DNA of 64,000 nt from a virus: the IMG/VR virus record IMGVR_UViG_3300032020_000002; one strand, written 5' to 3'. The translations under genes and the position numbers were made by a program. This document shows, piece after piece, positions 5,742 through 39,091 of this stretch (its first letter is position 1; every line of letters begins with the position of its first letter). The notes under the pieces were generated by a model that was given only the letters and a program-made list of their open reading frames with translations, had not been told where the DNA came from and did not search any database.

Positions 5742-6872
5742 ATGAGAGCGAACAGGTGGAATATGCAAAGAGCAATAAGATTGAAGATAGAAAATCAGGA
5801 TGTGAAGGATACGGTTGAGCAGTATTTCAAAGCATACTGCTTCTGCATAGACAAAGGAACGGAGATGCACACAGCGAACAAGAAGAAAATCCATAATGCA
5901 ACATATTTCCCGTTACGCAAGATATATCCAACCATTCCATCAGCACTCTTGCAGACCATCCGAGATGTGGCTTGCGAAAACCTCAAGGCTGTCAAACTCA
6001 AGGTTAAGCCAATTCCGAAGAACAAATTCATTCGCTATGACAGACGGACATTCTCATATAAGAACGGCATAGTGAGTCTCTCCACGATAAATGGAAGACG
6101 GAAATTCCAGATAAGTCTTCCTAAGTTCGCAGAGAGATACAACTCATGGGACAGCAAAGCGGGAACAGTCACTTTGCGAGATGGTCAGTTGTGGCTGAAT
6201 ATAATCTTCAACAAGGAAAACCAAATCAAAAGTCCAGATACATTCATAGGCATAGACAGAGGGATAAACAAGATAGCAGTCTGCTCTGATAACTCGTTCT
6301 ACAACTCGAAACAACTGAAGTCGGTCAAGGGAAGATACCAATTCCTCAAGGCAAAACTTCAGTCAAAAGGCACAAAATCTGCCAAGATACACCTGAAACA
6401 TTTGTCTGGCAGAGAGAGACGGTTCGTTAGGGATGTGAACCATGTAATCAGCAAGCAGATAGTGAAGAAGCCATATGACTGCTTCGTTCTGGAAGACCTG
6501 AAGAATATACCGAGGAACAAAGGCAGGCGGTTCAACAGAAAACTTGGTGGATGGTCGTATTTCCAACTCGGCAATTTCGTGGATTACAAATCCGAAGAAC
6601 TTGGAAAGACAACTATCAAAGAAAATCCAAGGCACACAAGCCAGATGTGTTCCAGATGCGGACATATAGAGAGGTTGAACAGAAAGGGCAGTCGGTTCAA
6701 ATGCAAAAAGTGTGGCTTTGAACTGGATGCGGATTTGAACGCATCGAGGAACATCGCCAATTTGGGTATATCCCGATTTGGCAGGCTGAATGTCATCCAG
6801 CCAATCGTGTCGGTTAACCAAAATGAATACAAGCCAGATGCAAGCCCACACTCTTCAGAGGTGGGTAGATGA
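5742..6872 (+). CDS. tnpB: TnpB (OrfB) RuvC-like RNA-guided nuclease with C-terminal zinc finger
   Basis: RuvC-I GIDRGINK, RuvC-II VLEDL, zinc finger CSRCGH...CKKCGF, RuvC-III DADLNASRNIA. Confidence 0.85.
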   Translation: MRANRWNMQRAIRLKIENQDVKDTVEQYFKAYCFCIDKGTEMHTANKKKIHNATYFPLRKIYPTIPSALLQTIRDVACENLKAVKLKVKPIPKNKFIRYDRRTFSYKNGIVSLSTINGRRKFQISLPKFAERYNSWDSKAGTVTLRDGQLWLNIIFNKENQIKSPDTFIGIDRGINKIAVCSDNSFYNSKQLKSVKGRYQFLKAKLQSKGTKSAKIHLKHLSGRERRFVRDVNHVISKQIVKKPYDCFVLEDLKNIPRNKGRRFNRKLGGWSYFQLGNFVDYKSEELGKTTIKENPRHTSQMCSRCGHIERLNRKGSRFKCKKCGFELDADLNASRNIANLGISRFGRLNVIQPIVSVNQNEYKPDASPHSSEVGR

Positions 6873-14307: not shown

Positions 14308-14601
14308 ATGGATGAAAAATTAAGCGAAAAGGACAAGAAGGAACTCTATGAGATACGGGAGGCACAGTTCAAGGAAGTCGTGGATAGCGTCATGGAAAAG
14401 GGAGAAGAGACAAAGACTGAAATTTATAACGCCATAAAGGAATTGCCACAAGACCTGATTGATGACCCAGAAAAGGACAAAGAAAGGAAGATGATACTGA
14501 AAATGCTAAAGAACATAGTGCTGTCCAACGAGAAGATAGTGGATAATGTGTCCAAAATAGTTATCAGGGGTGCTGAACAGGAGATAGAAAAAGGCTTATA
14601 G
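14308..14601 (+). CDS. acidic small protein
   Basis: SD TAAGGAGGAATT upstream. Confidence 0.5.
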   Translation: MDEKLSEKDKKELYEIREAQFKEVVDSVMEKGEETKTEIYNAIKELPQDLIDDPEKDKERKMILKMLKNIVLSNEKIVDNVSKIVIRGAEQEIEKGL

Positions 14602-14644
14602 GTAAAAGCTATAAGTTTATAGTAAAAAGCTATAAAGGAACAAT

Positions 14645-15421
14645 ATGCCTATGTTCAATTTACTCGAATTAAGCAGTTATGAATTTTTGCAGTTCCTTGC
14701 AGTCTTTTTTATCGCAATCACAGCATTTTATTTTTTAGCTTACATAAGAAACTCAAGAAAACTTGCGAAAAAAACCAAAGGAAGGACATCGGTTTCATTT
14801 ACAGTGAAAAAGCTAAAAAAGAAAGAGAGAATGCAAATTTTCAGCAATTTGGCTTTCACATTCACGCTACTTTTTGCGTTATATGCATTGCATTTCCAAT
14901 ACCAGTATTACAACAACAGGGCGAGTGTATATTCATCGCTGGTCAGTAATTATGAAAAGCTGATACAGTTGAAAAACGAGCAGACAGAAGCCATTTCCAC
15001 AGACTGCATGAACATCATCCAGAACAGCGAAATGAAAATGGAAGACATAGAAAATCTTGTTCAGGACATAAGGCTGAATTATGACAGCTTGCAGGAAAAC
15101 TATTCAGATTGCCAGCAAAAACTTGACCAAATTTCTTTTATTAAAGCCGTAGAACCATTTGCGAGTAACCACACCTACGACAGTCATTTTTTCAACTGCG
15201 TAGATTATAGCCGAGGTTGTGTTGACATATGGACAGAAATGGGTTATCAGGCTTATACTAAATCTGTCCGTGTTGACTGCTCGTCAGGCTTGTTCGGTTG
15301 CGAAAAGGGGGACAATAATCGTCACATGATTGCTATGATTGAAGTCCCAGTCGAATGCACTTCCTCATATCCGTTCATCATTCCGCCTTCGGAGTTTTAC
15401 GCATACGGACTGACGGGTTAG
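14645..15421 (+). CDS. membrane protein with Cys-rich extracytoplasmic domain
   Basis: 2 N-terminal TM helices. Confidence 0.5.
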   Translation: MPMFNLLELSSYEFLQFLAVFFIAITAFYFLAYIRNSRKLAKKTKGRTSVSFTVKKLKKKERMQIFSNLAFTFTLLFALYALHFQYQYYNNRASVYSSLVSNYEKLIQLKNEQTEAISTDCMNIIQNSEMKMEDIENLVQDIRLNYDSLQENYSDCQQKLDQISFIKAVEPFASNHTYDSHFFNCVDYSRGCVDIWTEMGYQAYTKSVRVDCSSGLFGCEKGDNNRHMIAMIEVPVECTSSYPFIIPPSEFYAYGLTG

Positions 15422-15450
15422 TTTATTAAAATATAAGAATAAGGATAATC

Positions 15451-16032
15451 ATGGCGAGAATACCAAAGCAAAGGGTGAGATATGATATTTTCTGGAAAAT
15501 CGGAATCGTCAGAATGTGGTATTCGGTAAGTCCCAAAACGGACACGCCAATCCCCTTCTGCGAAATGCGTTGCATAATTTTTGCTCGCAGGAAGCCCAGA
15601 ACTATAACGGAGAAATTGCTTCTGATTGACAAGCTCAAAAAGAAGCTGGACACACTGGTTTTACTGACAACCACAGGCTTTCAGGATGCGGAAATAGGTG
15701 GGTTCATATATGGTGATGACAGCCCATTAAGGGAAGTAGAAGTGAAGGTAAAGAAAAAGCAAATCGGCAAGCTGATGGTGGAGATAAACGGACATGAAGC
15801 AGAACCGCTTGCTGTGATAAAAGCATACAGGATGGTCAATAAAGAGCCAGTGCAGACATACATCTTCAAGACAATCCCAAGACCGATTGAGCTTTATGAG
15901 AAATACGGAACGATTTACAGGTATATGGCGTTTTTTGATAAATTTGGGTTGCTCCGTGCCGATTATGATGAACAACAAATTAGAGAAATTGAAAAAAAGG
16001 TCTTTGCGTCATTTTTAGGTGCTAAACCATGA
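15451..16032 (+). CDS. hypothetical protein; homing-endonuclease target gene (ends ...YDEQQIREIEKKVFASFLGAKP)
   Basis: C-terminal 22 aa duplicated at end of next ORF. Confidence 0.55.
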   Translation: MARIPKQRVRYDIFWKIGIVRMWYSVSPKTDTPIPFCEMRCIIFARRKPRTITEKLLLIDKLKKKLDTLVLLTTTGFQDAEIGGFIYGDDSPLREVEVKVKKKQIGKLMVEINGHEAEPLAVIKAYRMVNKEPVQTYIFKTIPRPIELYEKYGTIYRYMAFFDKFGLLRADYDEQQIREIEKKVFASFLGAKP

Positions 16033-17117
16033 AAAAGGATTCACATCATAAACCAGCCAGCATAGAAAAAATGAGAATATCTCATATAGGTAAAAGGAAG
16101 TCACCAGAATCAATTAAAAATCAATCGGAAAGTTTAAAGGAATTTTATAAAACACACCAACATTGGCAAAAAGGTGTCCCAAGACCGCAATGGGTAAGGG
16201 AAAAAATAAGTAAAACTGAAAAAGGTCGTCCAAGCCCAATGAAAGGAAGGCATCATACAGAAGAAACTAAAAGGAAAATAGGGATTGCATTTAAAGGTAA
16301 AACTGGATTTAAACATTCTGAAGAAAATAAAGAGAAAATGAGTTTATCCGCTAATAAAAAATTCCAAAATGGGTATATACATCCAATGAAAGGCAAAAAA
16401 CATACCAGAGAGAGTAAATTAAAAATGTCAATTTCACAAAAGAAATTATATGTCGAAGATAAAAGGAAAATTTCCAAAGAAACACAATTTAAAAAGGGAC
16501 AAAAAAAACTACCCCATAAAATTGATTGCCAATGCTTCTTTTGCACGGGTAAGCCTCCACCTTGGACTGGTAAAACATTAGAAGAAATTGTCGGAGTTGA
16601 AAGAGCAAAACAAATAAGATTAAAACAATCAGAACGATTAAAAAATGAATATAAAAATGGCAAAAGGATTAGCCCACTTAAAAAATTAAGAAACACACCA
16701 GAATTTTCTCAAAAAATCATAAAAGGCATTGTTAAAAAACCGAATAAATGTGAACAGAAGTTAATTAACATAATTAATGATAATAGTTTGCCATACAAAT
16801 ATGTTGGAAATGGAAATTTCATGGTAGGGAACAGATGCCCAGATTTTATCAATTCAAATGGCTCTAAAAAAATCATTGAATTATTTGGCAGAACATATCA
16901 TTCTCCTCGTCATTCGTTTTTCAAAATATCTTATAATCATACAGAAAATGGAACAAAGGAATACTACAAAAATTTTGGTTATTCATGTTTAGTAATTTGG
17001 GATTATGAATTAAAAGAAAGAGCAATCGTTATTAACAAAATAAAAGATTATGATGAATTTGAAATTCGCAAATTGGAAAAGCAGGTTTTCGCATCATTCT
17101 TGGGGGCGAAGCCATGA
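16029..17117 (+). CDS. free-standing homing endonuclease-like protein with NUMOD3 repeats and C-terminal nuclease-like domain; carries recoded copy of upstream gene's C-terminus
   Basis: tandem KxGxxHSEETKxKIS NUMOD3-like motifs; ends YDEFEIRKLEKQVFASFLGAKP. Confidence 0.6.
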   Translation: MKKDSHHKPASIEKMRISHIGKRKSPESIKNQSESLKEFYKTHQHWQKGVPRPQWVREKISKTEKGRPSPMKGRHHTEETKRKIGIAFKGKTGFKHSEENKEKMSLSANKKFQNGYIHPMKGKKHTRESKLKMSISQKKLYVEDKRKISKETQFKKGQKKLPHKIDCQCFFCTGKPPPWTGKTLEEIVGVERAKQIRLKQSERLKNEYKNGKRISPLKKLRNTPEFSQKIIKGIVKKPNKCEQKLINIINDNSLPYKYVGNGNFMVGNRCPDFINSNGSKKIIELFGRTYHSPRHSFFKISYNHTENGTKEYYKNFGYSCLVIWDYELKERAIVINKIKDYDEFEIRKLEKQVFASFLGAKP

Positions 17118-17650
17118 ACTACTTTTTGCATGATAACAGGATAACAGCCGATTACGATTTTGAAAACGAATTAAAACTATCATTCTACATACTCAAGGGC
17201 ATTCTATTGCTCAAAAAACTTCCGAGCAAAATCAGGCAGACAGAAAGGGGATACCATGTCATCTTTTCTGGAATTGACACTTCAGATGAAAAAAGGTTTA
17301 CCCGAAGATTACAGCTTGGAGATGACAAAAATAGAATAAGGTTGGATAGGTCGAGTGAGAAAAGGCAGAAGCAAGTGCTTTTTTCAGAAAAAACAGTAAC
17401 CACTTTCGGATATATGCATCCAGTTTGGTTCAAAATAGTAAAAATCGAAAGCCCATCAAAGCATTTTAATGTCTGCCCGTTCTGTCATAAAAAAATAAGC
17501 CAAGCGAAGAAAATATGGACAGACGAATTGAGGGCGATACAGGTTTTCCATAAAAACTCACAACACATATGCGAATACAAATTACGCATGAAACCTCTTC
17601 CGACAATAATAAAGCTACTTAAAAAAACAGGAACAGAGGTGGTAACATGA
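17114..17650 (+). CDS. hypothetical protein
   Basis: ATGA overlap. Confidence 0.5.
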   Translation: MNYFLHDNRITADYDFENELKLSFYILKGILLLKKLPSKIRQTERGYHVIFSGIDTSDEKRFTRRLQLGDDKNRIRLDRSSEKRQKQVLFSEKTVTTFGYMHPVWFKIVKIESPSKHFNVCPFCHKKISQAKKIWTDELRAIQVFHKNSQHICEYKLRMKPLPTIIKLLKKTGTEVVT

Positions 17651-17937
17651 TGGTAAAATGCTATTACTGCGGTCAGCAAATAGACGGCGATGCCTATAGC
17701 TTACATCTGTGGAATATACACGATAAAGACATCAGGCATTTAGCCAAGCATAAAAAAAGAGGGATTATCAAGAAAATACCACTTTTGAACCGCAAGAAAG
17801 AGAGGGATTACAGCAAGGTCAAGGATTTCTTCAAGCCACCGAGAGAAAGGAAAACCTTAAAAATGGACTTTTTCAGGGGAATCATTTTCGGCTCTTTGCT
17901 GACGCTTGCTGGAATATTAATTTATCTTGTGATATGA
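17647..17937 (+). CDS. zinc-ribbon protein with C-terminal TM anchor
   Basis: CYYCGQ; hydrophobic C-terminus. Confidence 0.45.
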   Translation: MMVKCYYCGQQIDGDAYSLHLWNIHDKDIRHLAKHKKRGIIKKIPLLNRKKERDYSKVKDFFKPPRERKTLKMDFFRGIIFGSLLTLAGILIYLVI

Positions 17938-18123
17938 ATGCAGGTAATAGACGGAAGAAGGAAGATAACCTTCACGGACAAATACACAACGAGCTACAAC
18001 AAGGCAAAGGGGACATGGGGTTGCGACTGCAAGCACGGAAGCATAAATTCGTGCAAGCTCAAGGAACATCCGTGCAGGCATATCAAAAAGGCACAGGAAT
18101 TACTTAAAATTAATTTCATATGA
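17938..18123 (+). CDS. small Cys-containing protein
   Basis: ORF track. Confidence 0.4.
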   Translation: MQVIDGRRKITFTDKYTTSYNKAKGTWGCDCKHGSINSCKLKEHPCRHIKKAQELLKINFI

Positions 18124-18269
18124 AAAGACTAAAAGCTATTTTCGGGCTATCAAAACAGGAAAAATATTATATCCTGATATGCCTTTTCATAATCATCATA
18201 TTAATCACACTCCAAATACTCAATGATAATGGCACAATCAATGTTTGAACTCATGGAACAAATGCGAAC

Positions 18270-18660
18270 AAAATGTTAATCATATGATAATTTTAAGTTA
18301 CATATGCCTATTTCCTTCTGTGGGTTTTTTGTCATTTTGTTTTCGTTTGCACTTTTAATCGTCATGTGATAAAAAATAGCACATTAACCTATTAACACAA
18401 GACAGTTAGTTGGTTAAGCCAGCCCAGCGAAAAATCATCATGTGATAATTATGGATGACCGTAAAAAGGCACAGTCCCCAATTTGTTAATCATCATGTGA
18501 TAATAAACAGCACAATAACCTATTAACAGATGTCGGTTAGTTGGTTAAGGGAACAGGGAAAATAATCATGTGATGATAAAAGCTCAAACGGCACAGTAAC
18601 CTATTAACTGGGAGGGTGGCAATCATGTGATAAATAATGATAAAACTATAATAATAGTAT
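18270..18660. repeat. tandem array (~5 units, ~60-80 bp) built on AATCAT(CAT)GTGATAAT palindrome-like core plus CACAGTAACCTATTAAC and GTTAGTTGGTTAAG boxes
   Basis: Read directly; motif copies at ~18276, 18356, 18432, 18486, 18563, 18621. Confidence 0.7.
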
Positions 18661-18705
18661 CCCTTTTTAAATCTTATTGCGAAAATAATCATAAAAGGAA
18701 AAACA

Positions 18706-21007: not shown

Positions 21008-21845
21008 AACAGTGGCTTTTCTGCTTGTTATTGGCGTTGTTGCTTCCCTTGTTTTCGGAAGCATAGCGGTGATACCAGCAGGACACAGGGGCGTATTATT
21101 GACTTGGGGTAAAGTGGAAGACAGGATACTCGGAGAAGGAATAAGCACCATTACACCATTTTTGAATCAGGCGGTGCTGATGTCTGTCCAGACAATGAAA
21201 TATTCGGCAAAGGCGAGTTCCGCTTCCGCAGACCTTCAGATAGTAACCACCGAAGTGACCCTAAACTACCACATAGACCCTGCACAAGTGAACAGAATAT
21301 ACCAGCAATTGACTGTGGCTTACGAAGACAGGGTTATATCACCCGCAATTCAGGAAGCGGTAAAAGCCTCGACAGCCGAATTTACAGCAGAGGAACTGAT
21401 AACAAAAAGACCCATGATTAAAGAGGCAATAGAAACAGCATTAAAAGAAAAGTTAGTGAATCATGGAATAATCGTGGAAAGCGTCTTTTTGACCGATTTC
21501 AAATTCAGTCCAGAGTTCGAGACGGCAATAGAGTCGAAGGTTACTGCACAACAGCTTGCACAGAAAGCAGAAAACGACCTAAAGAGAATAAAGGTCGAGG
21601 CAGAACAGGTGATAGCACAAGCAAACGGAACGGCAACTGCAAAGCTGACAATAGCCACAGCAGAGGCACAGGCAATCAAACTACAGGGTGAGGCATTAAG
21701 ATTAAACCCCGAAGTAATTCGTCTCCGTGCAGTGGAGAAATGGACGGGATTAATGCCACAATATCTCATAATGGGTAGCGGACAAGATAACGGTCTTGCT
21801 GGACTCATTTTGAATATGCCCACGCCACAAAAAGAAGGGGGGTAA
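20964..21845 (+). CDS. SPFH/band-7 (stomatin/prohibitin-like) membrane protein
   Basis: N-terminal TM then AVIPAGHRGVLLTWGKV...; SD TGGAGGTAAAT upstream of ATG 20964. Confidence 0.75.
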   Translation: MATAEEFNPLRTAVKTVAFLLVIGVVASLVFGSIAVIPAGHRGVLLTWGKVEDRILGEGISTITPFLNQAVLMSVQTMKYSAKASSASADLQIVTTEVTLNYHIDPAQVNRIYQQLTVAYEDRVISPAIQEAVKASTAEFTAEELITKRPMIKEAIETALKEKLVNHGIIVESVFLTDFKFSPEFETAIESKVTAQQLAQKAENDLKRIKVEAEQVIAQANGTATAKLTIATAEAQAIKLQGEALRLNPEVIRLRAVEKWTGLMPQYLIMGSGQDNGLAGLILNMPTPQKEGG

Positions 21846-34778: not shown

Positions 34779-37299
34779 TTACCTTCTTACCTCTATTTTA
34801 AAACCTCTTTCTGTTATAGCGAAAAAGCGTTTACCATAAGATTCGTATTCTTTTTCTGTTATCAAAATAATATGCTCCCCTTTCTTTTCTCCATGAAAAA
34901 GCCTTCCCATCCTCTGTCCTTCCTGCCTGCGACTCCCAAAAAGGAAATCAATTTCAATGACCCTTTCTATATCTGGAAGGCTTAACCCCTCGTCTCCCAC
35001 TCTACTCACTACGGTAACATCGCTTTTATTGATTATTTCAAGCCTGTCCTTTGTCTGTCCGTAAACGAACGGTATCTCAAATTTCTTTGATAGGCTTTTA
35101 CCTAAATTTATTTTGTCGCAGAACACTATGGTCTTCTTTTCCTGCTGTAAAAGCTCCGCAAGTTTGCTTTCTTTTGCTTTATAATCACTCAATATATACA
35201 ATATCACATCGGGGACTTCTATTATCCCTTCTTCTATCAGGCTATCCCATGATATTCCTATGGGGAATCCTGTGAGAGCAAAAATATAATTCTCCCTCTG
35301 GTCTTCCCTAAAAGGCGAGCCTGAATTATGCGTTAAAACTTTGTTTGCAAAAAAGTTATGATTGTCGGCAATTTCCAAGTCGTAAAATGTTCTATTTTCT
35401 TTTCTTACTCTTACTTTTTCAATTCCGATGACTATGCCCTTTTCAATACGCATGAACACCACTCCTATTATGACAAGAGAAACACAGTGTTGTGCCATTG
35501 TTTACATCTAATCTGAATTCGGGATATTTTGAGAATAATTTTTTATGATGAGCATGAAGGTTTTTTTTACTACCACAACTTGTGCAGGTGAAATTGTCAT
35601 GTTTGAATACATCTCTTCTCCATTTCTTGTATTCCAAAGAATTAGAATATTCCTTTCTCCAGTAAGATACTCCTCCTTGCCAGTTCGGATTAAGTTGTCC
35701 TTTCTTACCATACATTCCATTGTTTTTTCCGCTTAGACAGCCTGTAATTTTTAATGTAGCTAATCTTTTTGCCATTATTCTCTCGTCTTTCCAAAGAGTG
35801 TGTCCTTTTTTGAATTCCGTATTAGGAGAATATCTTTTTCCTTTATGTATTTTTGATAATTTATTCCGTGTTTTTCTGTCATGGGTTTTGCCAAAAAACG
35901 GATTCTTCTCTCCGACAAGTTTCCCTTTCAGTGATTTCGATATATTTTTTCTATGGTTTTCGGTAAATTCCCTTCCCTTCAATGAGTGACTTATCTTGTC
36001 TCCAGCGTATTTTGCTGGATTGTTCAAAGTGCAATGCGGGTGAACCAATATCGTAGTTTCATCTCCTTCTATTAGCTCACTTGCCTTTTTGTATTTACCT
36101 GAAACAAAGAACTCGTGGTCTGGTGAGCAGAGTATTTCTTTTATTCCAAATTTTGTTTTTATTTTAACTTTCAGTATTTCGTTAACTTCCCTCTTGTAAT
36201 AATCGAGTATAGGTTTAGCTTCTATCTGTCCTGTTCCATGATTGAAAGACAGAACCTTCACTGGCAATTTATTATCAACGATTTCACTTATTTTCATCAC
36301 ACTTCCATCTTCCAGTGTTACCGTAGTTCTTTTATGTAAACATAATCCAATCCTGTATCGTGTGTTTAAGGTCGCAAATCGTGAGAACTGGTTGGCTGGT
36401 AAGTGATGGACTTCATCAAAAATCACTAAAGCCCATTCCTTGTCCCTCACCTTATCAAAAGAGTGATATGTAACGATAGATGTTTCCCCTTCCCTCAAAT
36501 CGGTATATTCTTTTATTCTTTCTGTCCATTGCTCTACAAGCGTCACTGTCGGGACAACTATGAGCTTATTGCCCTTTATTGAGGATAGTGCCTTCAGACC
36601 AAAAAATGTTTTGCCTGCGCTGAATGCCCAAAAAACTCCAGTCGCACCAGTCTCAAGGAATTTATCCCACGCCTCTTTCTGATAATCCCTCAAAGTGAAT
36701 TTTACTGGTCTCTCAAGAAGGTCTTCAGTTTGGACTGGTTGTTTCATAAAAGGCAATATTCCGTTATCTATAAGCTCCGCAAGTAGCTGAAATTCATATC
36801 CCTTTTTGATTTTTATTTTGTCTGTCCCTTCCCTTCTGCTTAAAAATTTACCAAATTTATTCCAAGCATCTTCCTGATGCTCTTTTCCTGTAAGTAGCAT
36901 TCCATCGAACACCTGTAAGGGCAATTTCATTTTGCCTTTGAATTTCCCTTCCAATTCTGCTGGCAATTCACCGAGCCAGTTCATGTATTTGTTTATCTTG
37001 AAAATGTTATAGGTGTCCGTTGAGAAATCGAGCCACCCCAAATTCATTCGTATAAATTTCGGAACAGGAACATACCATTCTTCGTGTTTGCCAGTAGGTA
37101 TAAGGACATAAGGTTTGTTAAGGAAAGGCATGAAGTTGTCTTGGTCAATCTTTATCCTCATTTTGTCTGATATTTCCGATAATTTTTCCGCATTGGCTTT
37201 TTGTGATACTTCCAACTCTGTCTTCATCTCCTCTATCCTTTTGGAATAATCCTGCGATATTTGTCGCAATTCCTTCAATTTCTCTTCATTGACCATTTC
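34779..37299 (-). CDS. SF2 (DEAH-type) helicase interrupted by an intein; single frameshift inside the intein HNH domain near 35445-35500
   Basis: Walker A GVFWAFSAGKT, motif II DEVHH, motif III RIGL|intein|SGSP, motif VI QRMGRLFH in downstream ORF. Confidence 0.7.
35325..36342 (-). mobile_element. intein (Hint domain + NUMOD3-like + HNH endonuclease) inserted in helicase motif III; HNH frameshifted
   Basis: starts CLHKRTTVTLEDG, block B SPDHEF, ends VLTHN|S; HNH LCFSCHN. Confidence 0.65.
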
Positions 37300-37313
37300 A
37301 TCACCATCAAAAA

Positions 37314-37670
37314 TCAAAAACCGCCAAAAAGGTCTTTGGTCGTCTTTGCCCCTCCCTTCATGGCGCTTATCTGCTGTAACCCTCCAAGTATGAGCAGGAA
37401 TTCCTTCCTTCCGAGCCTGAACCTTGACACCCTTAACAACAGGAAATGCCTCACCCACTGCCTTATGAGGTCGCTATCCAGATAATCGGCATATGATAAC
37501 ATAGCAGACATACCGAATATCTCTTCTGGTGTCAAATCAGAAACGGTGTGCAGTCTTTCATCTGCTGGCTTCATAAGCTCAAGAGACACCTTTGCAAGTG
37601 CCTCATCGAGACCTACTATTCCCATCTCTTCCGATTCCTTTTTCAATTTTTGCCTCATCTCAAGCGTCAT
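37314..37670 (-). CDS. hypothetical protein
   Basis: ORF track. Confidence 0.45.
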   Translation of the reverse strand: MTLEMRQKLKKESEEMGIVGLDEALAKVSLELMKPADERLHTVSDLTPEEIFGMSAMLSYADYLDSDLIRQWVRHFLLLRVSRFRLGRKEFLLILGGLQQISAMKGGAKTTKDLFGGF

Positions 37671-38592: not shown

Positions 38593-38796
38593 ATGGCAGT
38601 AGCAGAAGCAGTTAAGGACAAGATAGTTTCCGTTTTGGGACTTATCGTGGTTCTTATCGCTGTAGCACAGATGCTTCCCACTTTGAAGACAGGTCTCGCC
38701 AGCATCACACCCGATGTCCCTATACTATCGTTCACGCTGATAGGGCTTCTGGTCGGTATTGGGCTGATAATCTTCGTTGTGGAAGCTGTGTTTTAA
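38593..38796 (+). CDS. small two-helix hydrophobic protein (archaeal-virus capsid-like), paralog A
   Basis: 67 aa; ~85% identical to 38888..39091. Confidence 0.6.
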   Translation: MAVAEAVKDKIVSVLGLIVVLIAVAQMLPTLKTGLASITPDVPILSFTLIGLLVGIGLIIFVVEAVF

Positions 38797-38887: not shown

Positions 38888-39091
38888 ATGGCAGTAGCAG
38901 AAGCAGTAAAAGATAAGATTGTGTCCGTATTGGGTCTCATCGTAGTCCTGATTGCGGTAGCACAGATGCTTCCGACCCTGAAAGATGGTTTAGCGGTAAT
39001 AACACCAGATGTCCCCATTTTGAGCTTCGGGCTGATTGGGATGCTGGTCGGTATTGGGCTAATCATCTTCGTTGTCGAAGCGGTATTCTAA
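38888..39091 (+). CDS. small two-helix hydrophobic protein, paralog B
   Basis: tandem duplicate; SD GAGAGGAAAAAC upstream. Confidence 0.6.
   Translation: MAVAEAVKDKIVSVLGLIVVLIAVAQMLPTLKDGLAVITPDVPILSFGLIGMLVGIGLIIFVVEAVF

Follow-up and report, generated by a model that had tools for sequence, protein, structure and literature searches.

How can a homing endonuclease gene (HEG) lie inside a viral coding sequence and leave the invaded gene whole? HEGs are thought to spare their host gene only when housed in an intron or intein or placed between genes, and we asked how the gene was spared at one locus in 64,000 nt of viral DNA (IMG/VR record IMGVR_UViG_3300032020_000002; hereafter the window). 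Three ORFs follow one another on the + strand. Gene A (15451..16032, 193 aa), the host gene with the occupied 3′ end, ends in its ORF translation with DYDEQQIREIEKKVFASFLGAKP; the next ORF (16029..17117, 362 aa, identical to P0004) ends with DYDEFEIRKLEKQVFASFLGAKP; and gene B (17114..17650, 178 aa) lies immediately 3′ of A in every HEG-free genome. An ATGA overlap joins the stop of A to the HEG start at 16029–16032, as an earlier note on this DNA had recorded, and a second joins the HEG stop to the start of B at 17114–17117. A is ended by a TGA stop, and the HEG is read in a different frame. The HEG has a GC content of 0.30, compared with 0.37–0.43 in the flanks. A scan of the region found no promoter- or terminator-like sites on the + strand inside the HEG, and the idea that the HEG has its own promoter was dropped.

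The earlier note took the middle ORF for a homing endonuclease, and domain and fold comparisons bear this out. The N-terminal region (16029..16730, + strand, residues 1–234) is predicted to bind DNA from its Pfam match to NUMOD3 repeats (E=3.9e-14), which falls in two stretches within residues ~11–155, the best of them covering residues 57–84. A Vsr-like nuclease domain of the EDxHD type (16731..17051, + strand, residues 235–341) follows, assigned by fold and profile. Because a single-sequence phmmer search against the PDB returned nothing meaningful, this assignment needed a family profile and a fold search; PHROG matches were weak as well. Several of the 480 homologues are annotated as Vsr or DUF559 proteins, and in the family NUMOD3 was matched in 36 of 40 members and DUF559 in 13 of 40. 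The family profile matched 3r3p, the catalytic domain of I-Bth0305I, with E=1.7e-8 and Vsr with E=0.009, and Foldseek ranked 3r3p_A first in the PDB (TM 0.77, prob 1.00), followed by Vsr (1cw0/1vsr) and 3hrl; the AlphaFold2 (AF2) block-mean pLDDT is 91–98 over residues 241–360. Candidate catalytic residues are E242 (16752), D272 (16842, within PDF), E284 (16878) and H291 (16899, within ..YH), the last aligning with H213 of I-Bth0305I. E242, P271, D272, F273 and E284 are invariant in the family and H291 nearly so, all are present in the window protein, and E306, D325 and E327 are candidates for the last acidic residue of the motif. Together, these comparisons of sequence and predicted structure show the ORF to be intact and free-standing and place it among homing endonucleases of the I-Bth0305I/Vsr-like (EDxHD) family.

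The window protein resembles I-Bth0305I in having N-terminal NUMOD-type modules followed by a C-terminal Vsr-like nuclease, the reverse of the order in I-TevI and I-HmuI, and the two share a PD..(I)E..G..H core and a C-terminal ..I.KF helix. Another EDxHD member, Hef of phage U5, is free-standing in a phage or phage-like genome, as is the window gene. I-Bth0305I is described as an intron-encoded EDxHD enzyme with NUMOD2-like motifs (Taylor et al. 2011; PMC3239194), whereas the window protein has NUMOD3 repeats, is encoded outside an intron and bears 21 extra C-terminal residues of host-gene origin.

The tail shared by A and the endonuclease (15961–16032 and 17046–17117) is a real duplication, as the earlier note had reported, but spans 23 codons and not 22. 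Eighteen of the 23 residues are identical and 22 similar (BLASTP E=5e-9 for this single comparison). In nucleotides, 53 of 72 positions match, with a longest exact run of 12 nt (GATTATGATGAA), and different synonymous codons are used at 10 of the 18 conserved residues, so two versions of the end of A, distinct at synonymous positions, do flank the HEG. In A the same residues make up its C-terminal helix, and the family-wide conserved C-terminal motif of A reads YRYVAFFD..G.IK.DYDE..IR.LE. Nothing but the shortness of the match speaks for an origin of this similarity in chance, low complexity or assembly chimerism, to which we give practically no credence. Chance and low complexity are refuted by the E value, by the position of both copies at the extreme C-termini of adjacent ORFs and by nucleotide matches to independent alleles. 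The A–HEG–B arrangement is not an assembly artefact, since the identical 362-aa ORF recurs in the same context on 17 contigs, which come from three assembly sources and represent at least 7 independent samples.

Comparison with close relatives placed the insert inside A, not behind it as the earlier note had supposed. Aligned with the nearest HEG-free allele, L001, the window has an extra 1,085 bp, cleanly inserted six codons short of the stop of A. The left flank (15531–16013, 483 nt) is 100% identical and the right flank (17094–18217) has a single SNP; the two genomes are thus close to identical apart from short mosaic patches. L001–L005 are almost identical siblings without the HEG, and the insertion is thus missing from close relatives, as had been proposed; B directly follows A in L001–L007 and L016–L020. 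Relatives with the same end of A and no nuclease, which the earlier note had named as evidence against an insertion, do exist (L001–L005), but their end matches 17094–17117, as expected of empty-site alleles, and they do not refute it. A itself is collinear with its HEG-free homologues and encodes a full-length protein ending in VFASFLGAKP. Samples in which one or other of the alleles occurs include JGI 3300035659, 3300035660 and 3300035179 as well as SRR11721627 and SRR11714386. Wider searches added no alleles: megablast of 14600–18200 against 50,697 phage records gave no match, a scan of IMG/VR viral contigs for A gave no relative, and metagenome contigs scanned with an alignment of A gave a single locus, on the same contig as L011.

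The continuity of A in HEG-free alleles also bears on whether the locus is the remnant of a group I intron or intein that once interrupted A, an intron-like arrangement being the alternative that the earlier note had offered. The prototype I-Bth0305I is intron-encoded (PMC3239194), and another part of the window contains an intein-like element. However, the two tails are redundant copies and not two exons, A has its own stop with the HEG in another frame, no Rfam family is matched at E<=1 in 15000–18700, and a Pfam search found no intein or Hint domain in the HEG ORF. We consider such a remnant highly improbable.

The two tails correspond largely to two versions of the end of A, which we call QQ and FE. 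The QQ patch (15955..16013, + strand; RADYDEQQIREIEKKVFAS) is a divergent version of the tail that is also present in the HEG-free siblings L001–L005; it is 100% identical to L001 and differs from FE-type alleles at ~46% of positions, whereas the last 200 nt of the body of A upstream of it are 88–94% identical to those alleles. All FE-type relatives are empty, and the four other A variants are all FE-type (4/4). A search for distant A homologues found the combination of a QQ-type tail with VFASFLGAKP in none of 39 representatives. By these comparisons, most differences between the two tails represent two natural allele types, both present in HEG-free genomes, rather than recoding. The recoding that the earlier note had proposed holds for five changes only. 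In the HEG-linked substitute for the last six codons and stop of A (16014..16032, + strand), native TTC TTG GGG GCG AAG CCA is replaced by TTT TTA GGT GCT AAA CCA, through five synonymous G/C-to-A/T changes (16014, 16017, 16020, 16023 and 16026) confined to HEG-bearing contigs; no HEG-free allele departs from the native version. The same segment holds the HEG start ATG (16029) and an AGGTG Shine–Dalgarno-like motif.

The polarity of the substitution appears to be the reverse of that first proposed, in which the recoded copy was the one on the endonuclease. The downstream tail (17046..17117, + strand), which supplies the endonuclease in frame with its last 23 residues and has a stop that overlaps the start of B, matches HEG-free L020 at 70 of 72 nt and L006 at 68 of 72, is 100% identical to L001 from 17094 onward and has a host-like GC content at third codon positions (GC3; 10/23, 43%). 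The stretch 17052–17133 is 100% identical to L020, slightly (and weakly) above what vertical inheritance would predict. In tests based on just 20–25 codons, the upstream tail has a GC3 of 16%, near the 22% of the HEG and unlike the 52% of the body of A (p=0.001), and the QQ patch one of 4/20 compared with 87/168 in the body of A (p=0.009). Judged from these matches and this composition, the tail fused to the HEG is probably native-type host sequence, the displaced FE end of A, and it is the divergent, AT-rich copy that completes gene A. As regards a foreign origin of the upstream copy, we observe that L001, which is HEG-free, shares the QQ patch and that the adjoining gene B is also diverged: window B is 100% identical to that of L001 and shows 52–53% amino acid identity to B of the FE lineage.

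How the endonuclease acquired this tail can be approached from its relatives. HEG homologues terminate at ..KIxxF plus 0–10 residues (for example, KIRKFDDESME), and the native C-terminal helix of the family ends at ..KIKDY341 in the window protein, so D340–Y341 are native to the HEG and the rest of the tail is an add-on. In the AF2 model the tail continues the last nuclease helix; block-mean pLDDT is 95–98 immediately before the tail and 91 for residues 351–360, and it falls to 63 at the final two residues. P0005 and P0008, the nearest relatives of the HEG, lie at unrelated loci with neither an A-family neighbour nor a tail duplication; hence, these loci reveal no donor and tail fusion is not a habit of the family. 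A functional role of the tail, in which the C-terminal helix of A would let the endonuclease bind the partner of A, multimerise with A or regulate the nuclease, is suggested by the intact fusion, 100% conserved on 17 contigs, and by the modelled helix continuation together with the C-terminal helix in A. Yet HEG copies show no sequence variation from which selection could be read; an in-frame fusion has a prior of one in three; microhomology at DYDE explains the fusion; and homologues do without any such tail. We regard this role as very unlikely; it fits either of the histories considered below.

Taken as a whole, the 1.1-kb AT-rich block is probably a mobile homing cassette in the 3′ end of A that carries a substitute gene end. 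Such a cassette would bring its own replacement for the codons that it displaces, so that A is still a full-length protein. The displaced native end would stay right before B and be read as the C-terminal 23 residues of the endonuclease, ending at the original ATGA; its retention would keep the native upstream sequence of B and its stop/start coupling, yielding a chain from A through the HEG to B.

For the origin of this arrangement, we lean towards a history in which the upstream tail (15955–16032) arrived with the HEG from a diverged relative, in a manner resembling the 'C-terminal carry-over' of fungal mitochondria. In an FE-type allele, the cassette would have entered ahead of the DYDE codons, with the right junction formed through microhomology between the ...KIKDY(DE) end of the enzyme and the DYDE codons of A. 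The L001-type allele, a QQ patch with a native end, would then be a secondary and probably immune scar of HEG loss or abortive homing. This history needs an extra step, be it abortive repair or loss of the HEG at a 5-nt microhomology, and the QQ patch adjoins the diverged B and could be a native mosaic module instead of a HEG import. Neither a QQ-tail donor in another background nor an FE-type allele in the background of the window was found in searches that included metagenome contigs scanned with the A alignment and 39 representatives of distant A homologues.

Because HEG-free L001 already has the QQ patch, the polymorphism taken by itself is read most simply as an insertion between TCATT and C into an L001-type allele. 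That allele would then be ancestral, the original empty site, and also the one that the enzyme cleaves, with the QQ patch native to a mosaic module that includes B, and a cassette of six recoded codons, HEG and FE patch would have come from an unsampled HEG-bearing FE-type donor and inserted between GCGTCATT and CTTGG. The closest-genome comparison gives exactly the clean 1,085-bp insertion so expected, and the five HEG-specific changes lie immediately to the right of the insertion point. The diverged B is next to the QQ patch, L020 matches the FE patch with 100% identity, and no additional HEG-loss step is needed. Furthermore, QQ followed by the native end is the sole combination missing from the HEG-bearing genome, as expected for a sensitive site. 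Against this, what sets the right junction apart from the L001 site is just 1 position within 7 nt of the insertion point and 3 within 15 nt (17093, 17090 and 17087), and such immunity would be thin for a family reported to tolerate single substitutions (PMC3239194). The FE patch downstream of the HEG would be left unexplained, and the duplication would still need an earlier event of the kind that we favour; a mosaic boundary would be more natural at a gene border than 25 codons into A, and the GC3 of the QQ patch is HEG-like. Weighing these points, we find an ancestral L001-type allele rather unlikely.

Returning to the homing cassette, its spread would take place during co-infection, when the enzyme may cut HEG-free alleles at or near the conserved end of A, a site that we place from the junctions only. 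The break would be repaired from the HEG-bearing genome, copying the cassette in, and both junction copies of the site would be altered in the occupied genome, conferring immunity. One candidate half of the target is a conserved island (17095..17130, + strand) in which the native end of A runs through the ATGA junction into the first codons of B; it holds the upstream context of B and is invariant over 26 nt across L001, L006, L016 and L020, and across the window, L001 and L006 to 17130, with L020 diverging at ~17134. The island alone is unlikely to be the target, because an intact copy with an FE-type left context persists in the HEG-bearing genome. The two tails are only 74% identical in nucleotides, with no exact run above 12 nt, which would limit loss of the cassette by recombination between repeats.

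The principle of a substitute gene end is already known from mobile ORFs of fungal mitochondria, where C-termini are carried over and the native copy displaced in Allomyces macrogynus atp6 and in Glomus atp6, atp9, cox2 and nad3 (Beaudet et al. 2013; PMC3630166). As in the window, an endonuclease ORF sits in the 3′ part of a gene with a duplicated C-terminal segment, a divergent copy completes the gene upstream while the native copy lies ~1 kb downstream, and protein conservation is high despite low nucleotide identity. The fungal enzymes are LAGLIDADG or GIY-YIG proteins, in contrast to the EDxHD enzyme of this prokaryotic virus-like genome. ORFs of the atp6/nad3 type are in phase with the upstream gene, whereas the window HEG is not, being separated by a stop and an ATGA restart; it instead runs in frame into the displaced downstream copy, the stop of which couples to the next gene, and a HEG-free allele with the divergent patch exists in the window case. 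A further comparison is with T4-type free-standing HEGs (mobE and seg) and intronless homing. These genes likewise lie between or within conserved phage genes, with starts that overlap upstream stops and suggest translational coupling (PMC2988022). They also show presence/absence polymorphism and HEG-linked flanking polymorphisms, but they encode GIY-YIG or HNH enzymes. In our search, the T4 review (PMC2988022) gave no account of a gene end being duplicated or substituted, and our limited literature search found no phage precedent for such an end beside a HEG, only the fungal mitochondrial cases.

Engineered home-and-rescue or cleave-and-rescue drives (for example, PMC7968924) similarly link a gene-targeting nuclease to a recoded, cleavage-resistant copy of the targeted coding segment, through which the gene continues to function; the window element differs in being natural and protein-guided and in replacing only the gene end. 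It is conceivable, and we put it forward tentatively, that the locus represents a natural home-and-rescue virus drive, in which an EDxHD enzyme would target the most conserved C-terminal motif of A, carry a portable diverged replacement for it and, upon its loss or aborted homing, leave immune, HEG-free L001-type scars behind.

A HEG that travels with a portable replacement for a gene end could enter a coding sequence with neither intron nor intein. The cassette would thus exemplify, for a prokaryotic virus-like genome, a third route, one documented earlier mainly in fungal mitochondria, and a natural counterpart of engineered home-and-rescue gene drives. With an occupied allele, its nearly identical empty counterpart and several diverged empty ones, the allele set is unusually complete and opens target specificity, immunity and the source of HEG-linked mosaic patches to direct test. 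More broadly, endonucleases may create short foreign patches at phage gene ends and, if true, a home-and-rescue drive would push gene-end replacement between phage lineages.

Gene A (15451..16032, + strand, 193 aa), a middle open reading frame (ORF; 16029..17117, + strand, 362 aa) and gene B (17114..17650, + strand), as read from the ORF listing and the sequence, adjoin one another with an ATGA stop/start overlap at both junctions. Gene A ends in DYDEQQIREIEKKVFASFLGAKP and the 362-aa ORF in DYDEFEIRKLEKQVFASFLGAKP; in this single pair compared, 18/23 residues are identical and 22/23 similar (E=5e-9). The duplicated gene end described in the earlier note is therefore present, but it spans 23 codons rather than 22. 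At the nucleotide level 53/72 positions match, the longest exact run being 12 nt (GATTATGATGAA), and synonymous codons differ at 10 of the 18 conserved residues. When the whole window was scanned for neighbouring ORFs that share similar C-termini, only this pair and one tandem pair of small paralogues emerged. Tandem 67-aa ORFs at 38593-38796 and 38888-39091 (+ strand) have hydrophobic C-termini with almost the same sequence (ITPDVPILSF.LIG.LVGIGLIIFVVEAVF) and look like paralogues of a small membrane protein.

Pfam detected NUMOD3 in the middle ORF (E=3.9e-14), and a database search yielded 480 homologues, most with NUMOD3 and some with DUF559 or Vsr domains or named by their source as very-short-patch-repair endonucleases. 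An AlphaFold model built from 40 homologues had block-mean pLDDT values of 91-98 over residues 241-360, and the closest PDB structures were the I-Bth0305I catalytic domain (3r3p, TM 0.77), Vsr (1cw0, 1vsr) and 3hrl. The family profile matched 3r3p with E=1.7e-8, and the window protein keeps E242, P271-D272-F273, E284, H291, W324 and E327, which are invariant or near-invariant in the family. The EDxHD family, as defined by Taylor et al. (PMC3239194), joins N-terminal NUMOD DNA-binding modules to a C-terminal Vsr-like nuclease and has free-standing phage members such as Hef; the middle ORF matches this architecture exactly. The NUMOD3 match, Vsr-like fold and profile score bear out the homing-endonuclease call of the earlier note: the middle ORF is a predicted homing endonuclease gene (HEG), intact and of EDxHD type, and its enzyme is a new member of an already known family. 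RNA-family searches across the region gave no match, indicating that no group I intron is present, and the intron-like remnant once entertained as an alternative is not supported. No promoter- or terminator-like sites were found on the + strand within the endonuclease ORF, which is AT-rich (GC 0.30 versus 0.37-0.43 in the flanks).

Close relatives of gene A were few, and the allele comparison rests on their fetched contigs. The siblings L001-L005, almost identical to the window outside short mosaic patches, share its divergent QQ-type A tail, and the relatives L006/L007, L016-L019 and L020, ~84-90% identical to the window, carry the other natural allele type (FE-type, DYDEFEIRKLEKQVFA(S/T)FLGAKP); in both groups the endonuclease is absent and B directly follows A. 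Seventeen contigs, drawn from three assembly sources and at least 7 samples, carry the identical endonuclease, and each has the gene order A-HEG-B; in one of them (L011) the downstream background is different. Together with the HEG-free relatives, this recurrence establishes the arrangement as real and polymorphic, and presence or absence of the HEG is precise between almost identical genomes. The window departs from L001-type genomes mainly in short, dense mosaic patches (15097-15207, 18255-18700 and 21320-21807) with almost no SNPs between them, a pattern suggestive of frequent recombination over short tracts, perhaps connected with nucleases. Otherwise identical contigs vary most at ~18250-18700, an AT-rich and apparently non-coding stretch, and GC rises from ~0.37 to ~0.51 at ~18700.

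Compared with its nearest HEG-free counterpart, the window has a 1,085-bp insertion in three parts: FLGAKP in recoded form with its stop, the endonuclease, and a DYDE..VFA segment of FE type. The insert lies within gene A, after ..GCG TCA TT and six codons before the stop when compared with L001, and not behind the gene as previously supposed. The window and L001 show 100% identity over 15531-16013, and the next 15 nt of the window contain five synonymous third-position changes (16014, 16017, 16020, 16023 and 16026; TTC TTG GGG GCG AAG to TTT TTA GGT GCT AAA) that were seen in HEG-bearing contigs only. The native version of this stretch is invariant in all HEG-free alleles, which elsewhere in A differ by up to 16%. 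As read from the sequence, the recoding also places AGGTG, a candidate Shine-Dalgarno-like motif, 7 nt upstream of the endonuclease ATG. At the other end, 17058-17093 agrees with FE-type alleles and has 14 differences from L001, and 17094-18217 equals L001 bar one SNP. Gene A is full length in the HEG-bearing genome, and the native A-end/B-start island (17095-17130) is kept in front of B.

Over 72 nt, the endonuclease tail shares 70 positions with the HEG-free allele L020. Judged by sequence, it is the native-type host segment and the divergent tail is gene A's, which reverses the polarity proposed in the earlier note, where the recoded copy was placed on the endonuclease. Third-position GC is 52% in the A body, 16% in the upstream tail (15955-16029), 22% in the endonuclease and 43% in the downstream tail; on these small codon numbers, the upstream tail departs from the A body (p=0.001) and cannot be told apart from the endonuclease, and the downstream tail resembles the host and is distinct from the endonuclease (p=0.02).

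In HEG homologues a conserved helix, ..(V)xxKIxxF, lies 0-10 residues from the C-terminus (KIRKFDDESME-stop in the homologue P0008; KFWVT in I-Bth0305I). KIKDY341 of the window enzyme fills the ..KIxxF position, so D340-Y341 are native to the enzyme and the next 21 residues are an add-on. Because native enzyme ends, (D/E)-(F/Y)-D-x-E, resemble the conserved DYDE of gene A, and the sole two differences between the downstream tail and L020 fall in the GAT TAT (DY) codons (17046-17051), we take the in-frame fusion to be the probable product of recombination at DYDE microhomology.

Duplication of the tail allows the insert to be placed in either of two registers. We favour, at somewhat better than even probability, invasion of an FE-type allele just before DYDE, with the resident tail pushed downstream. 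The invading block (15955 to ~17051) would comprise a foreign A tail (QQ patch, 15955..16013, plus AT-rich end) and the endonuclease, and L001 would be a secondary HEG-free derivative in which repeat recombination or abortive synthesis-dependent repair could have fused the QQ patch to the native end inside TCATT. The third-position composition argues for this history, as do the FE type of all four other A variants and, by analogy, the fungal mitochondrial pattern of a foreign in-gene copy and a displaced native copy (PMC3630166). Immunity would be robust, because both junction copies of the DYDE-spanning site are heavily altered, and the diverged gene B module would start at the gene border. 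Alternatively, L001 may represent the ancestral empty, sensitive site, and the cassette the recoded six codons, HEG and FE patch. In favour of such a history are its parsimony for the polymorphism as observed, the five HEG-specific changes directly adjoining the insertion point, the QQ patch adjoining strongly diverged B and the 100% identity of the FE patch to L020. Its right junction, however, would differ from the target at just one to three nearby positions, and an earlier invasion of the favoured kind would still be needed to put an FE patch behind the enzyme; we consider it rather unlikely.

At least 39 diverged clusters make up the gene A family, and the best-conserved motif of A, YRYVAFFD..G.IK.DYDE..IR.LE, extends across the occupied region. 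Homing endonucleases habitually target conserved sequence, a habit that the occupied motif fits. Among the FE-type alleles L006, L016 and L020, the least conserved stretch of A (11/30 invariant nt; codons ~161-170, window 15931-15960) lies directly upstream of the DYDE codons, where the favoured history places the insertion. Gene B proteins (window 17114-17650 versus L006 8579-9112) are 52-53% identical between lineages, neighbouring genes 82-89%, and the first 11 residues of B and the preceding 26 nt are invariant; B either evolves fast or is a swapped module adjoining the endonuclease site.

The genome is virus-like (RNA ligase, DUF5131, YopX and many small ORFs), gave no match in the phage reference collections searched, and abounds in other selfish elements (TnpB, HNH genes and an intein-like insert in a helicase). 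A TnpB-like transposase gene lies at 5742-6872 (+ strand; phrog_506, E=4e-47). On the minus strand (34779-37458), two overlapping ORFs resemble one helicase split by an intein-like element: a 671-aa ORF with the helicase N-terminal part and a C-terminal HNH domain, and a 239-aa ORF with an initial Intein_splicing match (E=2.5e-7; 31.1 bits, under the Pfam gathering cut-off of 35.8) followed by ERCC3/RAD25 helicase C. Directly upstream of A, L001 (5331-7754), L002 and L003 carry a 284-aa gene and an IS200/IS605-type pair (132-aa Y1 transposase and 377-aa, Cas12f-like OrfB/TnpB); all three genes are missing from the window junction (15421/15451), and the first ~27 codons of A differ (15455-15530). 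L001 has a further Cas12f1-like TNB gene (1061-2179), absent from the window between 12108 and 12300. After a Band_7 gene, siblings carry an extra 190-aa HNH_3 and NUMOD3 endonuclease gene (L001 13334-13906), absent from the window (gap 21820/21845), and another HNH_3 gene lies in L006 (11519-11893, minus strand), with no such gene call there in L007; these point to several independent HEG presence/absence polymorphisms in the virus group.

Mobile ORFs in the mitochondria of Allomyces and Glomus already provide examples of a carried substitute C-terminus with a displaced native copy; limited literature searches found no description of such an arrangement in phages or in the EDxHD family. Unlike the fungal cases, the window HEG is fused in frame to the displaced downstream copy, and its group has a HEG-free allele keeping the divergent patch. 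Free-standing T4 endonucleases show the same start/stop overlap (PMC2988022), and the enzyme would be translated by coupling to A. During co-infection it would cut HEG-free alleles, and repair would transfer a copy of the cassette to them. The substitute codons would change the site and leave A functional, the displaced end would preserve the upstream context and coupling of B, and the 26% divergence between the two tails would limit deletion through repeat recombination.
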